NCBI GenBank assembly: GCA_964507665.1
Contig: CAZDPT010000002.1
Location: 29,016-93,015 of the forward strand
Source of the DNA: an uncultured Candidatus Saccharibacteria bacterium
Lineage (GTDB): Bacteria; Patescibacteriota; Minisyncoccia; Minisyncoccales; CAYZYK01
DNA: 64,000 nucleotides
Reading direction: 5' to 3'
Shown: positions 19,964 to 28,714 of the stretch, piece by piece
Layout: each line of letters opens with the position of its first letter
Numbering within the stretch: the stretch's first letter is position 1
The notes under the pieces: generated by a model
Databases searched by the model: none
Seen by the model: the letters and a program-made list of their open reading frames with translations, nothing else
What the model was told of the DNA's origin: nothing
Position numbers and translations under genes: made by a program

Positions 19964-20029
19964 TTAATATGATCGTTGAAAGATAACAAGTAAAATCAGT
20001 TACTTGAAATTGCCTCGGATAAAACTTTT

Positions 20030-21530
<1,501 letters not shown>

Positions 21531-21966: not shown

Positions 21967-23187
21967 TTAAATTTTTGTTTGGGTTTTGGTTTGGGTTTTG
22001 GGAGGAGTAACGAAGTAATCTTTTTTAACGTGTTCAATTAATATTTTAGTTAATATAGGGGCAAGGAGAGTGGTGATAACACTTAAAATAATCATAGCGG
22101 TCACTAATTCAGAAGATAGAATTTTCATTTCTTGACCAACAAAGACTACAGCTAAGGTAGTGGTGAGCTGGGGGATACTTGTGGCTGCCACTAGGGCACT
22201 TTGTTTTAAAGTATGATGACGTAAACGAGCAGCAATCCAAGTGCTTCCAAATTTAGTCACTAGAGAACCAAACAGGATGGTTATTGTTAATATCCAAAAC
22301 CCTTTTGTTTCCAAAAAAATATTAATATTTGTTTTCATACCTATAGATACAAAAAATATAGGTATGAAAAATCCATAAGATAAAGCAAATATCTTATTTT
22401 TTAATTCAGGATTGGTTATTACCCCCGAAAGTACTAAACCTGCAAAAAATGCTCCTATCATAGGATGCAATCCAAGCAATTCAAATACAACCACCATTCC
22501 TAATAGAATAACAAAGATGAAACGAAGTTCACGTTCAAAGCCAAACTTCTCCTCTGATATAAATATTTTAGCAAGAAAACGATAAGAACGAAAAATAACC
22601 CAAACAAACAATCCTCCTAACAAAAATATTCCAACAAACAATAAGATAAACCAGGTCAAAGAGAGAGTTGAACCAGGAGATAAATATTGTAAGGCAACAG
22701 CAAGAATTATTAAACTTAAAATATCTTGTAGTATAATGGCTGAAGTGGTTAATTGACCTATTTTAGTTTTTAAAAGTTTTTTTTCTTCTAAAATAGGAAC
22801 AACCACAGCAAAGGAAGAGGACATAAAAATAATTCCTAACAAGATAACCGCGCCAATATTATAACCAAAAAATAGACCAATTAGTGCTCCTATGATGGCG
22901 GGAACAAAACCGCTTATCAAAGCAATTAAAACTGAATCTTTCCAAAATTGTTTAATTCCCGATAATTTAATTTCTAATCCGGCCATGAATAATAAAAATA
23001 TCAATCCCAGAGATGCCAGAAAATTAAAAGTGGCATCGGGAGCAACAAATTTAAAACCAAAAGGGCCGATGATTATTCCTGCTACAATAAGAGCTATTAC
23101 CCAAGGAATTCGAAAACGATGAAGTATTCGGGAAAAAAATAAAGAAACTGATAAGATTAAAAATAGTGGAATTAGTCCTTCTTGCAT
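21967..23187 (-). CDS. cation:proton antiporter (CPA2/Kef-NapA-like)
   Basis: 406 aa with about 12 predicted TM helices. N-terminal pattern resembles Na+/H+ exchanger family proteins. Confidence 0.7.
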   Translation of the reverse strand: MQEGLIPLFLILSVSLFFSRILHRFRIPWVIALIVAGIIIGPFGFKFVAPDATFNFLASLGLIFLLFMAGLEIKLSGIKQFWKDSVLIALISGFVPAIIGALIGLFFGYNIGAVILLGIIFMSSSFAVVVPILEEKKLLKTKIGQLTTSAIILQDILSLIILAVALQYLSPGSTLSLTWFILLFVGIFLLGGLFVWVIFRSYRFLAKIFISEEKFGFERELRFIFVILLGMVVVFELLGLHPMIGAFFAGLVLSGVITNPELKNKIFALSYGFFIPIFFVSIGMKTNINIFLETKGFWILTITILFGSLVTKFGSTWIAARLRHHTLKQSALVAATSIPQLTTTLAVVFVGQEMKILSSELVTAMIILSVITTLLAPILTKILIEHVKKDYFVTPPKTQTKTQTKI

Positions 23188-23429: not shown

Positions 23430-24125
23430 ATGATTATTGGTTCATGGGCTCAAATAACTATTGATGCTTTAAAAGATCTTTGGCGAGGATTTTTAGATTT
23501 TATTCCTGAAGCTATAGGAGCTATTGTAGTTTTTGTTATTGGTTGGTTTATTGCTGCTGGTGTCGGAAAATTAGTTGAGAAGATTTTGTTGAAGTTACAG
23601 TTTAACAAACTTTTTGAGAAAGAAGGATGGAGAGAAGCTCTAGAAAAAGCAGATCTTAAAGTTGATGCCTCAAAATTCGTTGGAGCAATTGTTAAATGGG
23701 TTTTAGTAATTGTTTTCTTACTGGCTGCAGTAGAGATTTTAGGATTAGTACAATTTGCTAATTTCTTACAGGATGTTCTAGCTTACTTGCCTAATGTAAT
23801 TGTTGCTGTTTTGATTTTTGTGGTGACTTTCATTGTAGTAGATATTGTTGAGAAATTGGTGAGAGCATCTGTAGAAAGAATAAAAGTTGGTTACGGAAAT
23901 TTAATAAGTTTGTTTGTTAAATGGGCTATTTGGGTGTTTGCAGTTTTTGCTATTTTACGACAGCTTGTAATTGTTCCCACATTGATTGATACTCTATTTA
24001 AAGCTTTGGTTTATGGAGTGGTGGCTATGTTTGTAATTACAGCTGGGCTTGCTTTCGGACTTGGTGGAAGAGATTTTGCTAAAGAAGTTTTAGAAGAGTT
24101 AAGAAGAAAGGTTAGAAAGCGATAA
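23430..24125 (+). CDS. conserved TM-helix-repeat membrane protein (MscS-N-terminal-like family)
   Basis: Several TM helices with repeated VxxVxxWxIxxVxxL-type segments. Family assignment rests on pattern memory only. Confidence 0.4.
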   Translation: MIIGSWAQITIDALKDLWRGFLDFIPEAIGAIVVFVIGWFIAAGVGKLVEKILLKLQFNKLFEKEGWREALEKADLKVDASKFVGAIVKWVLVIVFLLAAVEILGLVQFANFLQDVLAYLPNVIVAVLIFVVTFIVVDIVEKLVRASVERIKVGYGNLISLFVKWAIWVFAVFAILRQLVIVPTLIDTLFKALVYGVVAMFVITAGLAFGLGGRDFAKEVLEELRRKVRKR

Positions 24126-24413: not shown

Positions 24414-27032
24414 TAGTGGAAAATTAAAAGATAATTAAAATCTGTATCTATTCCGCAGGAATAAATTAATTTAAAGGCAAATGGTGGATGCCTCGGGAGT
24501 AGGAAGCGATGAAGGACGTGGCGTAGCTGCGATAAGCCTCGGGGAGATGCTGAGCAATCTTTGATCCGGGGATATCCGAATGGGATAACCTATTCGCGTG
24601 ATAAACACGAATAACTCTGTCAGACGGCAGAGTAGCGAACCTGGTGAAGTGAAACATCTCAGTAACCAGAGGAAAAGAGAACGAAGTTTATTCTCTTAGT
24701 AGCGGCGAGCGAAAAGGGAAGAGTCCAAACCGAGTACTTTTTGTGCTCGGTGTAGTAAGGAGATAATTTCAGGGATATTTCTGGTGCACAGAAATATCCA
24801 CTGAGGGAGTTTATAACACAAAACTTGGTTAAAAGAAACACCCTGGAAAGGGGTGCCATAGAGGGTGATAGCCCCGTATTTAAAAACCGTTTTGTACTCC
24901 TTGTTATCTTTCTTGAGTACCGTCGGAAATGAAAGCCCGGCGGGAACCACCCCGAACTATCGGGGAAGACTAAATATTCCTACTCACCAATAGCGAACAA
25001 AGTACCGTGAGGGAAAGTTGAAAAGTAGCCCTGTGAGGGCGGTGAAATAGAACCTGAAACCATTTGCTTACAAAGAGTCAGAGCTCCACTTGTGGAGTGA
25101 TGGCGTGCTTTTTGCAGAACGAGCCAACGAGTGTATTTTATCCGCTAGTCTAAGAGGTTCTGCCTCGAAGGCATAGGGAAACCAAGTGTGAAAGCGCATC
25201 AAGCGGAGAGAATACGACCCGAAACCAGGCGATCTTACCATGGCCAGGGTGAACCCACTGTAAAAAGTGGGGGAGGCCCGAACCCGTAAGCCGGGCAATG
25301 CTTTGGGATGAGCTGTGGTAAGGAGTGAAAAGCTAATCGAGCTTGGTAATAGCTGGTTCTCCCCGAAACAGCTTTAGGGCTGACGTCTAGTTATATCTAT
25401 TGGAGGTAGAGCACTGGAAGGATTATCGTGGATTTTTCCAGATTTTCCTACCAAACTCCGAATACCAATAGACTTATCTAGGCAGTCAGACTATGGGGGC
25501 TAAGCTCCATAGTCGAAAGGGAAAGAGCCCAGACCATCATCTAAGGTCCCCAAGATTGAGCTAAGTGTATCTTAAGGAAGTATTTTGCCCCAGACAAACA
25601 GAAGGTTTGCTTAGAGGTAGCTATCCTTTAAAGAGTGTGTAAAAACTCACTGTTCTACTCATCCTTTGGATGAGAAGGGCAAGGTGCGCCGAAGATTTCC
25701 GGGACTCAAGCTCAACACCGAAGATATGGTTCAATATATTTAATATATTGGAGGTAGGGGAGCGTTCTGTTTGCGTTGAAGGTGAACCGGAAGGTTCACT
25801 GGAGCGGACAGAAGTGAGAATGTTGGCATGAGTAACCACAATAGGTGTGAGATTCACCTACACCGAAAACCCAAGGTTTCCTTGGCAATGGCGATCAGCC
25901 AAGGGTTAGGCGGTCCTAAGGTGAACCCGAAAGGGGTAATCGATGGACAGCCGGTTAATATTCCGGCCCTCCATTACTTTTTCAAAGAGGTAACGAAATT
26001 TAGTAGGTAAGGCAGATTATTGGATTTCTGTCCTCAGTCTAAGTTTTTACAAGGACTGAGGGGAAATTTGTCTTCGGACAAATTAACCTTACTGAGCAAA
26101 TTTCCAAGAAAAGCCTCCGCGAGTTAAAAGTAATGGATCCGTACCGCAAACCGACACAGGTGGGTTGGCATAAATGTGCTAAGGTGAACGGGTGAAACCT
26201 CGTTAAGGAACTCGGCAAAAAAGTGGCCGTAACTTCGGGATAAGGCCTACCACCATTTAGGTGGTCGCAGCTAAAGTTCCCCTGGCGACTGTTTATCAAA
26301 AACATAGGTCCCTGCTTAACTCGTAAGAGGATGTATAGGGGCTGAGGCCTGACCAGTGTTGGAACGTTAATGGTGGCGGTCCTTGTTTTACCTTCGGGTG
26401 AAATAACAAGGGCTGACTGCTTGAAGCTCCAATGAACGTCGGCGATAACTATAATCGTCCAAAGGTAGCGTAGTCCCTTGCCGGGTAAGTTCCGGCCTGC
26501 ATGAAAGGCTTAACGGCTGGGGGGCTGTCTCAACGAGGAGCCCGGTGAAAATGCAATACCGGTAAAGATGCCGGTTACCTGCGGCAAGACGGAAAGACCC
26601 CGGAAGCTTTACTGGAGCTAGATATTGGGTTTTGATTTTGAATGCGTAGTGTAGGTGGGAGACTTTGAAGCCAGAATTTCGGTTCTGGTGGAGTCGCCAA
26701 TGGAACACCACCCTTTTGAAATCTTTATTCTAATTTCGTTGTCCAAAGTACAACGGAAGACAGTGTTTAGCGGACAGTTTAAGTGGGGCGCTTGCCTCCC
26801 AAAGAGTAACGGAGGCGTTTATTAAGGTCGGCTAACTCCGGATGGAAATCGGAGTAATAGGACAAAGCCACAAGCCGGCTTTACTGCAAGACGGCTATGT
26901 CACGCAGTTGGGAAACCAGAACTTAGTGAACCGAGCGTAGTTTATAGAACCGCGTGAGATTATCAGATAAAAGTTACCCCGGGGATAACAGGTTGGTAGG
27001 GCCCGAGAGTCCATATCTACGGCCCTGTTCGA

Positions 27033-27104
<72 letters not shown>

Positions 27105-27120
27105 TGGTACGTGAGCTGGG

Positions 27121-28260
27121 TTGAGTAAAACTTGAGCCCAGTTAAAACTGGCTAATAACGGTGAAACCCATTATTTATTGTGGTATAATAAAATAATGGG
27201 CAATACCGTGGGAAGACAATTTTTTACCTTAAAGTTTCAAAGAGAAGTAATTATAGGATGTCTTTTAGGAGATGGAAGATTAGAATGTCGATCAAAAGAA
27301 GGAAGCGCCAGATTAAGAATTCATCACGGATGGAAGCAAAAAGATCTTGTCTTTTGGAAATATAGGGTGCTGAAAAACATAGTTTCTTGTCCTCCAAGAA
27401 GAATAGTTTGTTGGAAGAATCCTAAAAATGGTGAAGATTACCATTCCTGGTATTTTCACACTCGAACACTTCTAGGATTGAGAGAAATTTATAAGATGTT
27501 TTATCCAGACGGAGCAAAGATTTTACCCCAGAATATTCTTGATTTGTTAACACCAGTAAGTTTAGCAGTTTGGCTTATGGATGATGGATGCAATGATAGA
27601 AATTCTCTTGTTCTCAATACTCATAATTTTTCAAGAATCGAGAATAAAAGATTACAAGAAGTTCTTAAAGTGAAATTTAATCTTGATTTTGGGATTAATA
27701 AAGATCGAGATAAATGGAGATTAAGGCTTTATAGCAATGATTTTCAAAAGATAATAGATTTGACAGAGCCATATATTATTCCATCAATAAAGTATAAAAT
27801 TGTCCCCGTAGAGACTGAGTCCGTAAGAAGGACGAGGCAGTAGATAACCTACTGCAATACGCCAGTCCCATTAGATAATTTCAAAATCTATGGGAAAGAT
27901 ATAGTCCATGCTTATAGTAATATAAGAGTAAATATGTCAGACCGTCAAAAAAAGAACTTTAGATATCGAGTTCACACGGCGGCTTCCTGCTGTAAAGCAG
28001 GTTGAAAAACCGACTCATATCGGTGAAGTCCTTGTATCTTAACCTGTCGTGTACTAGGATAATACCGAGGGAAGTCGTAAATATTTTTTTATGGAGAATC
28101 TTCTAAAGGAAAAGAAAAATGTTTATTGACCCTGTAGAGACTTAGTGAAAAATTTTACTAGATTCTTTTCATTTTTGAGAAGGATAATACGTCGGTCCCC
28201 TTGAGATAGATATATATTTCATAGGGTGATGGTATAGTCCATTCCACTGGTAACAGTGGG
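27121..28260 (+). mobile_element. group-I-like intervening sequence in 23S domain V (between GCUGGG(UU) and UUUAGAA, E. coli ~U2584-U2586 region)
   Basis: Exon homology stops at ...gtgagctgggtt and resumes at gggtttagaatgcgtgagacagg. It contains S-element aagatatagtcc and R-like gtagagactgag motifs twice, plus a LAGLIDADG ORF. Confidence 0.8.
27196..27843 (+). CDS. double-motif LAGLIDADG homing endonuclease (intron-encoded)
   Basis: Motif 1 is IIGCLLGDGRL and motif 2 is LAVWLMDDGC. ATG at 27196 is preferred over the upstream TTG. The 3' end overlaps the first ribozyme core. Confidence 0.85.
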   Translation: MGNTVGRQFFTLKFQREVIIGCLLGDGRLECRSKEGSARLRIHHGWKQKDLVFWKYRVLKNIVSCPPRRIVCWKNPKNGEDYHSWYFHTRTLLGLREIYKMFYPDGAKILPQNILDLLTPVSLAVWLMDDGCNDRNSLVLNTHNFSRIENKRLQEVLKVKFNLDFGINKDRDKWRLRLYSNDFQKIIDLTEPYIIPSIKYKIVPVETESVRRTRQ

Positions 28261-28600
28261 TTTAGAATGCGTGAGACAGGTTGGTCCCTATCTACCGTAG
28301 GCGTTGAGTCTTGAGAGGAGTCATCCCTAGTACGAGAGGACCGGGATGAACTAACCTCTGGTGTACCAGCTGTTGCGCCAGCAGCACCGCTGGGTAGCTA
28401 AGTTGGGAAGGGATAAGCGCTGAAAGCATCTAAGTGCGAAGCCCACCTCAAGATTAGGACTCATAGACTCCTTGAAGACCACGAGGTTGATAGGCTCCAG
28501 GTGTAAGTCTAGTAATAGATTTAGCCGAGGAGTACTAATAAGTCATAAGTTTATTCCTCAAAGAATAGATACAGATTTTAGAAATCTTTTAAAAGGCATT

Positions 28601-28714
28601 TTGGTGGCGGCTATACTGGAGTTGTCCCACCTGTTCCCATTTCGAACACAGAAGTGAAATACTCCGAGGCCGATGATAGTAGGTTTTACCTGCGAAAGTA
28701 GGTAGCCGCCACCT
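28601..28714 (+). rRNA. rrf: 5S rRNA
   Basis: ttggtggcggctatactggag...cccacctgttcccatttcgaacacagaagt...gtagccgccacc. Helix I pairs the termini. Confidence 0.88.

Follow-up and report, generated by a model that had tools for sequence, protein, structure and literature searches.

Two probable group I introns flanking a nine-nucleotide exon in the 23S ribosomal RNA gene of an uncultured Candidatus Saccharibacteria bacterium

A 64,000-nucleotide stretch of contig CAZDPT010000002.1 (assembly GCA_964507665.1, an uncultured Candidatus Saccharibacteria bacterium), called the window below, contains a 23S ribosomal RNA (rRNA) gene that starts at 24460 and is interrupted within the sequence for the peptidyl-transferase loop. 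All features of the interrupted region are on the forward strand. The 5' exon ends with GAGCUGGGU (27113–27121), in which U27121 corresponds to Escherichia coli U2584 by alignment and by the A2602 landmark. It is followed by intron 1, a group I intron of 815 nt at site L2584 (27122–27936) that carries a LAGLIDADG open reading frame (ORF). Next is a micro-exon of 9 nt, UCAGACCGU (DNA TCAGACCGT; 27937–27945), which represents U2585–U2593 of the 23S rRNA and lies in the peptidyl-transferase loop and the 5' strand of helix 93. Intron 2, a group I intron of 324 nt without an ORF, is inserted after U2593 at site L2593 (27946–28269), and the 3' exon, located by pattern scan, junction table and the joined sequence, starts from C2594 with CGUGAGACAGGUUGGUCCC (28270–28290). 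The E. coli numbering was checked against one E. coli rrl copy and the A2602 landmark. A second public assembly (locus L001; three-digit L numbers denote loci, four-digit ones insertion sites) has an identical 1.2 kb copy of the two-intron region (100% identity). With a probability of about 90%, this region represents two independent, canonical group I introns at neighbouring known sites, flanking a 9-nt exon.

The 5' exon of each intron ends in U, held in a U.G pair of P1; each intron also has a terminal G (omegaG) and a guide sequence that matches its own flanking exons. Intron 1 ends in ...gtaaatatG, with G27936 directly before UCAGACCGU, and intron 2 ends in ...gtttagaatG, with G28269 directly before CGUGAG, where the exon resumes with CGTGAGACAGG; homologues have the same junctions. 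In all 26 of the same-site L2584 introns compared, the exon ends in ...GGGU, with T, A or G as the first base of the intron. L2593 introns can likewise begin with different bases (C, T, A or G). Because the first intron bases are variable at both sites, the junctions are unambiguous.

The expected product of joining the three exons is GCUGGGU-UCAGACCGU-CGUGAGACAGGUUGG (GCUGGGUUCAGACCGUCGUGAGACAGGUUGG; junctions GCUGGGUUCAGACCGUCGUGAGACAG, or GCUGGGU/UCAGACCGU/CGUGAGACAGG). Helix 93 in this product reads GACCGUC-GUGA-GAC-A-GGUU – it has the canonical length, with a compensatory A2590C/U2604G change. The resulting CC...GG signature of helix 93 (ACCGU...GGUUGG) is shared by most loci labelled Patescibacteria or Saccharibacteria, and is not found in proteobacterial or cyanobacterial loci. 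AACGU...GUUCGG takes its place in other phyla and in a few of the loci with those two labels.

Intron 1 has a complete set of group I pairings. P1 (27116–21/27136–41) is CUGGGU/GCCCAG with the splice-site wobble U27121.G27136, and P10 pairs the guide bases 27132–35 with 27937–40, (U)UGA with exon UCA(G). The core consists of P3 (27147–52/27861–66), P4 (27158–63/27204–09), P5 (27167–76/27191–200), P6 (27210–17/27802–07), P7 (27811,27813–16/27903–07), P7.1 (27819–33), P7.2 (27837–55), P8 (27867–94) and P9 (27911–26), followed by a tail (27927–36) that ends with omegaG at 27936. Across an alignment of 26 L2584 introns, 96.3% of the cells were paired and 20 pairs showed compensatory change, while controls in which the strands were slid gave 35–43%. 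P7.1, P7.2 and the inner part of P8 were assigned from the window sequence only and are outside the count; P7.1 and P7.2 were left out because MAFFT misaligned them. The splice-site U.G of P1 was present in all 26 sequences, and where the exon has the variant form GUUGGGU, the first P1 pair is U-A instead of C-G. The first pair of P7 (columns 223/360 of alignment A4; window 27811/27907) also covaries across L2584 introns, with the partners GUAGAGACU/AGUCC, GUAACGACU/AGUCU and GUAUCGACU/AGUCA.

The ORF of intron 1 (27196–27843, forward strand, 215 aa) runs from the 3' strand of P5 through the whole loop of P6 and ends in P7.2. It matches the Pfam family LAGLIDADG_2 (PF03161) with 155.4 bits, against a cut-off of 25, and among proteins of solved structure it is closest to 6x1j and I-SceI (E 4e-16 to 1e-13). 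The consensus start of 125 homologues, MGNTVGRQF, agrees with the ATG at 27196. Both acidic motifs, LLGDGRLE and WLMDDGC, are intact in the window protein and invariant in the family. The predicted target of this putative homing endonuclease is the intron-less site GTACGTGAGCTGGGT/TCAGACCGTCGTGAGA (GTACGTGAGCTGGGTTCAGACCGTCGTGAGACAGG), which it would be expected to cleave.

Intron 2 is equally complete in its pairings. P1 (27942–46/27978–82) is CCGU+C/GGCGG with the splice-site wobble U27945.G27979, and P10 pairs the guide bases CACG (27975–78) with CGUG of the 3' exon (28270–73). A hairpin occupies the P1 loop (27954–73), followed by P2 (27986–28001), P3 (28009–14/28191–96), P4 (28020–25/28063–68), P5 (28028–32/28056–60), P6 (28069–76/28128–33), P7 (28137,28139–42/28236–40), P7.1 (28143–60), P7.2 (28162–85), P8 (28198–226), P9 (28244–59) and a tail (28260–69) with omegaG at 28269. 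A hand-built P1–P10 model was scored on 17 aligned L2593 introns from the guide subfamily of intron 2, with the P6 loops trimmed; P7.1, P7.2, the P1-loop hairpin and the inner P8 were again assigned from the window alone, outside the count. In this alignment 96.5% of the cells were paired, and 21 of the 51 pairs change on both sides. None of 500 shuffles was as good, and moving the 3' partners by 1–3 columns reduced the paired fraction to 32–45%. The P1 U.G was present in 16 of the 16 sequences scored, and in both introns the P7 pairs are either invariant or covarying. The minimum-free-energy fold of intron 2 with its flanks has hairpins at the positions of P2, P7.1, P7.2, P8 and P9 (z = -4.3).

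The Rfam model Intron_gpI gave two separate matches, to intron 2 at 27950–28260 (45.5 bits, E=4.7e-10) and to intron 1 at 27719–27927 (27.6 bits, E=1e-4), the latter covering only the part downstream of the ORF. A same-family L2593 intron at locus L140 scored 57.1 bits, over the gathering score of the model. A preliminary description of this DNA had listed motifs of two group I cores, and these were borne out: in the first core the guide gagcccag (27134–41), P3, an R-like element (27808–19), an S element (27896–907) and P9, and in the second P3, an R-like element (28134–45), an S-like element (28231–40) and P9 are all present where it placed them. It was also right that only the first core carries a LAGLIDADG ORF.

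Intron 2 has in the loop of P6 a remnant ORF of 12 codons, MENLLKEKKNVY* (28091–28129, forward strand). Relatives of intron 2 that bear an ORF have a single-motif LAGLIDADG gene of 145–160 aa at exactly this place. The remnant keeps the start-codon context and a stretch like the 3' ends of the relatives' genes (...QLLKQKGLLTP* in locus L095, ...KHLIEKNLLTP* in locus L110), and it looks like a near-complete deletion scar of a LAGLIDADG_1 gene. On this comparison intron 2 is a decayed mobile element that has lost its endonuclease gene.

The end of intron 2 resembles exon sequence. The look-alike, GGGUUUAGAAUG (28258–28269, forward strand), comprises the last two bases of P9, an unpaired G and the rest of the 3' tail. 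Scored against its own upstream exon, GGGUUCAGACCGU, it reaches 7/13, and the other 98 L2593 introns score 6 or less. Tails in the L2593 family are of similar length, mostly A/U-rich, and mostly end in AUG. A role for this tail as a conserved exon mimic was considered and rejected, as it is the single best of 99 L2593 introns and the others are unlike the exon. The resemblance is treated here as probable chance.

Both introns occur singly at the same sites in other genomes. A scan of one genome per bacterial or archaeal species for the P7 3' strand followed after 15–45 nt by G+CGTGAGACAG yielded 120 loci, of which about 95 have the L2593 intron alone, in the order GAGCTGGGT-T[CT]A[GA]A[CA]CGT, intron, CGTGAGACAG – that is, GAGCTGGGT is joined without interruption to the micro-exon string or to its A/C and C/U variants. 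The converse state was found among 80 metagenomic loci, fetched for junction comparison, that encode relatives of the endonuclease. About 20 of these have the L2584 intron alone, followed by TCAGA[AC]CGTCGTGAGACAG, so that the micro-exon string runs straight into CGTGAGACAG. Locus L002, the closest relative on a long contig, is of this kind: it has an orthologue of intron 1 and no intron at L2593 (...GAGCTGGGT, intron aagtgaaatatgagcccag ... gtaatacaagagcaatatG, then TCAGAACGTCGTGAGACAGTTCGG). The orthologue ends in ...caatatG before TCAGAACGTCGTGAGACAG, with a terminal G and the exon resuming with UCAGA; these junctions place intron 1 after the equivalent of U2584 and give it a final G.

Both introns together were found in eight of the endonuclease-relative loci (L125, L138, L140, L141, L149, L150, L154 and L164) and, with TCAGACCGT between them, in the scan loci L045 and L050, the latter a Zambryskibacteria metagenome-assembled genome (MAG). 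There are thus at least ten loci with both introns and a 9-nt exon at the same position, which is TCAGACCGT except in L150, where it is TCAAACCGT.

Several of these loci have further introns. Both introns of locus L002 (1990–3735), one at L2500 and one at L2584, contain a LAGLIDADG ORF, and over 67 nt P3–P6 of the L2500 intron shares 87% identity with P3–P6 of intron 1 in the window. In locus L053 (140–500), from a gammaproteobacterial MAG, an L2593 intron is followed by an 11-nt exon, CGTGAGACAGT, and then by an intron after U2604 (L2604). Here too, two introns stand in tandem, and the micro-exon between them lies inside helix 93. In locus L071 (1–520), CGTGAGACAG stands before an intron and again after the 3' end of an L2593-type intron, with a run of N between; this is probably an assembly join across L2593 and L2604 introns, not a real duplication.

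The 9 nt of the micro-exon would serve both ribozymes. The intron 1 guide GCCCAG pairs with the 5' exon CUGGGU, and UUGA next to it forms P10 with bases one to four of the micro-exon. In intron 2, the guide GGCGG pairs with the last four bases of the micro-exon and the intron's own first base, and the overlapping CACG forms P10 with CGUG of the 3' exon. Because the two guides use non-overlapping halves of the micro-exon, both introns could in principle fold and splice independently, and the sequence forces no order of splicing.

The preliminary description took the region as a single composite insertion of 1.14 kb between GCUGGG(UU) and UUUAGAA, for which it found no canonical splice-site solution and suggested a tandem or twintron arrangement or non-canonical processing. 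As a twintron or twin-ribozyme, such an insertion would be removed in one piece, non-canonically, using the 5' site of the first core and a 3' site just after P9 of the second. Two cores are present, GGGUU occurs at either end of the region, and there is a resemblance between the E. coli exon GGGUUUAGAACG and the 12 nt that precede 28270. This last resemblance, together with the first base of intron 1, a U that mimics U2585, is the source of the apparent paradox. The junction that was proposed (GCUGGGUUUAGAAUGCGUGAG) would leave helix 93 one base short, with its G-C and U-A pairs disrupted, a form of the helix found in none of the 23S genes of about 200 loci; the preliminary description itself saw that no such junction has both a 5'-exon U and an intron-terminal G. 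Its segment after core 1, said only to resemble the exon loosely, is the true exon: it is identical to the conserved exon sequence, and both guides pair with it. Its 3' exon, GGGUUUAGAA or 'gtttagaatg', is the last 10 nt of intron 2, with a tail that is not conserved in the L2593 family, and the 3' boundary lies at 28269/28270 rather than near 28260. Once the micro-exon is recognised, both introns have canonical U and G boundaries with a P1 wobble and P10, in the window as well as in other genomes, where each intron is found alone at the same junctions. The two elements are not nested – they lie side by side, each with its own P1–P9 and exon-matching guide and with a true exon between them – so that 'tandem' describes them and 'twintron' does not. 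A composite insertion is extremely improbable. Only a very small chance is also given to a recent tandem duplication of one intron and its target, in which the second copy lost its endonuclease and the sequence between is a degenerate duplicated exon. The two cores do share GUAGAGACU, AUAGUCC, GGUGAA...AAUACCG and a GUAA-capped P9, within the same architecture with P7.1 and P7.2. Against a duplication, the trimmed cores are just 64.5% identical, and each is nearer to same-site introns of other organisms: intron 1 is 74–86% identical to most other L2584 introns, and intron 2 is 67–74% identical to the L2593 cores compared, except that of L010 (62.7%). BLAST between the two introns gives short core motifs only, the guides differ and match different exon positions, the scar in intron 2 is of the LAGLIDADG_1 type and not the LAGLIDADG_2 type of intron 1, and the 9 nt between them are an intact exon, not a degenerate copy. 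These comparisons argue for two site-specific lineages of one structural class.

Two independent introns of canonical form could still include one, or two, that no longer splice, leaving a pseudogene or a fragmented or interrupted 23S rRNA, as with bacterial intervening sequences or the unspliced intron of Simkania. This is very unlikely, but several points weigh on its side or otherwise against the reading preferred here. Splicing, its order and the ligation of the exons are inferred from sequence rather than observed; intron 2, having lost its endonuclease gene, is an ageing element; and the organism may have other rRNA operons besides the intron-bearing one. Both Intron_gpI matches, of which that to intron 1 is split by the ORF, score under the gathering threshold of the model (RF00028, 50 bits), a curated cut-off and not a biological criterion. 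P1 of intron 2 has just 5 bp and is invariant within its subfamily, so that its support comes from conservation and from comparison between subfamilies, and not from covariation within the alignment; another L2593 subfamily has the host exon GAACGU and the guide GCGUUC in place of GGCGG. The long-range pairings P3 and P7 were missed in the minimum-free-energy fold of intron 2, which is to be expected when a core is pseudoknotted, and comparative pair counts were used for this reason. What argues for two functional introns is that all 51 and 47 core pairs tested are standard pairs in the window sequence, that the splice-site U.G pairs, both terminal G and the G-binding pair of P7 are intact, and that the exons otherwise form a well-conserved 23S gene (2098 bits with the Rfam large-subunit (LSU) rRNA model). 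Retention of an insertion in the peptidyl-transferase loop, or loss of the 9-nt exon, would be expected to inactivate the ribosome, given the established knowledge of U2585 and A2602. Both introns are predicted here to be self-splicing.

The proximity of the introns raises the question of whether they move together. Intron 1, after U2584, would encode an I-SceI-like LAGLIDADG endonuclease, and intron 2, after U2593, appears to have lost its own. Just 9 bp separate intron 2 from the point at which the intron 1 endonuclease would cleave and intron 1 insert, and the ORF-less L2593 intron could therefore be co-converted into intron-less alleles when intron 1 homes. Such a linked mobile pair is conceivable yet doubtful. 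Among closely related L2584 introns, solo and tandem copies are intermingled, a pattern that suggests that the two introns were gained and lost independently and that does not favour linkage. The I-SceI site reaches about 9 bp to either side of the point of insertion, and the I-CreI site starts at approximately 2586 (about 2586–2607). By analogy with these sites, neither intron would destroy the target of the other, and a spacing of 9 bp may be about the smallest that leaves both endonuclease targets intact.

In the GGCGG-guide subfamily, the L2593 endonuclease gene is missing more often in tandem than in solo loci. ORF-less L2593 copies make up 5–6 of the 6–7 in tandem loci, compared with 8 of 21 in solo loci, though these samples are few and related. 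The other 13 of the 21 solo copies have an endonuclease gene; among the tandem loci L138, L140/L164, L141, L154 and L149, only L149 keeps it. The idea that intron 1 destroyed the target of the L2593 endonuclease and so drove gene loss was not adopted, given the few and related samples and an I-CreI-type site that would be uninterrupted by an insertion at 2584/2585.

L2593 is a classic intron site, occupied for example by the Chlamydomonas Cr.LSU intron, which encodes I-CreI. Group I introns at L2593 are also found in Synechococcus C9 and C1 and in Thermosynechococcus (Haugen et al. 2007, PMC1995217), and the cyanobacterial ones have a short P2, a short P5 and a P7.1/P7.2 extension (PMC1995217). 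Introns at site 2593 are reported from the Candidate Phyla Radiation (CPR) as well (PMC11270868). Intron 2 is like these known L2593 introns in its insertion after U2593, its short P2 and P5 and its P7.1/P7.2 extension, the last of which is also present in intron 1, and its relatives carry the single-motif LAGLIDADG gene in P6. It is unlike them in having no endonuclease, only the 12-codon scar, and in lying 9 nt downstream of another intron. At L2584, the introns Cne.mL2584 and Cga.mL2584 are known from the mitochondrial LSU rRNA of Cryptococcus (PMC5808193). These are likewise inserted after U2584 and of group IA type; they are about 250 nt long with no ORF, whereas intron 1 is bacterial and has a LAGLIDADG_2 gene, and the two are likened by site and type alone. 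Neighbouring introns with a short exon between them have precedents too. In organelle annotation, two apparently adjacent introns indicate a mini-exon or, less often, a twintron, and mini-exons shorter than about four codons are regularly missed in organelle genes (MFannot; PMC10352661). The window introns were likewise apparently adjacent, with the short exon missed, although the MFannot cases are mostly mitochondrial protein-coding genes and the window case is a bacterial rRNA gene.

One of the intron sites in the 23S gene of Coxiella is L1917. The other is L1951, and a 2007 title cited in PMC11270868 describes two self-splicing introns flanking a 34-bp exon. As far as that title and citation go, the window resembles Coxiella, though at other sites: in each, the 23S gene of a bacterium has a pair of independent group I introns with a very short exon between them, of 9 nt in the window rather than 34 bp. 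One Coxiella intron lacks omegaG, while both window introns have it. The CPR survey itself (Tsurumaki et al. 2024, PMC11270868) reports that, in CPR 23S genes, the surroundings of the peptidyl-transferase centre hold many group I introns that bear LAGLIDADG genes, and the window fits this survey of CPR/Patescibacteria insertions in that its 23S gene is closest to those of Patescibacteria MAGs: the 3' domain shows its greatest similarity, of 80–87%, to 23S genes of MAGs mostly labelled Patescibacteria, Saccharibacteria or 'bacterium'. Taken with the helix-93 signature, this similarity marks the source as probably a CPR/Patescibacteria bacterium. The text of the survey, as far as it was accessible, mentions neither position 2584 nor a pairing of L2584 and L2593 across a 9-nt exon, and its supplement, searched for sites 2584–2586, has none. 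The strings 'L2585' and 'L2593' in PMC9002315 are specimen numbers, not intron sites. The L2584 and L2593 pair with a 9-nt exon recurs in public data, and no description of it was found in the literature consulted, parts of PMC11270868 included. The arrangement is a further example of a known one; it involves no new mechanism and no new kind of element.

Patescibacteria-like rRNA genes can hold neighbouring introns with exons of only 9–11 nt between them, and sequences that look like exon at the ends of introns can then mislead an annotator, or an rRNA covariance model, into fusing two introns and arriving at impossible splice sites. Correct parsing matters for the mature sequence of the peptidyl-transferase centre, for intron counts and for the target sites of homing endonucleases. 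The locus is a compact case – two ribozymes, each of which would use half of a 9-nt exon of essential peptidyl-transferase-centre nucleotides (U2585–U2593) – and could lend itself well to work on how accurately, and in what order, adjacent group I introns are spliced.

The two-intron region defeats the standard rRNA annotation model. At its gathering threshold, the bacterial LSU model gives a single match, 24460–27181, which ends within intron 1 yet claims model positions 1–2925.

The window has a GC content of about 32% and is from a bacterial contig with co-oriented genes. Besides the 23S gene, its rRNA locus includes a 16S rRNA gene (20028–21529), accompanied by tRNA-Ile and tRNA-Ala, and a 5S rRNA gene (28603–28714). 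Two protein-coding genes lie between the tRNAs and the 23S gene, one for a Na+/H+ exchanger on the opposite strand (21967–23187, reverse) and one for an MscS-like channel (23430–24125, forward), so that the rRNA operon is split by about 2.5 kb of coding DNA.

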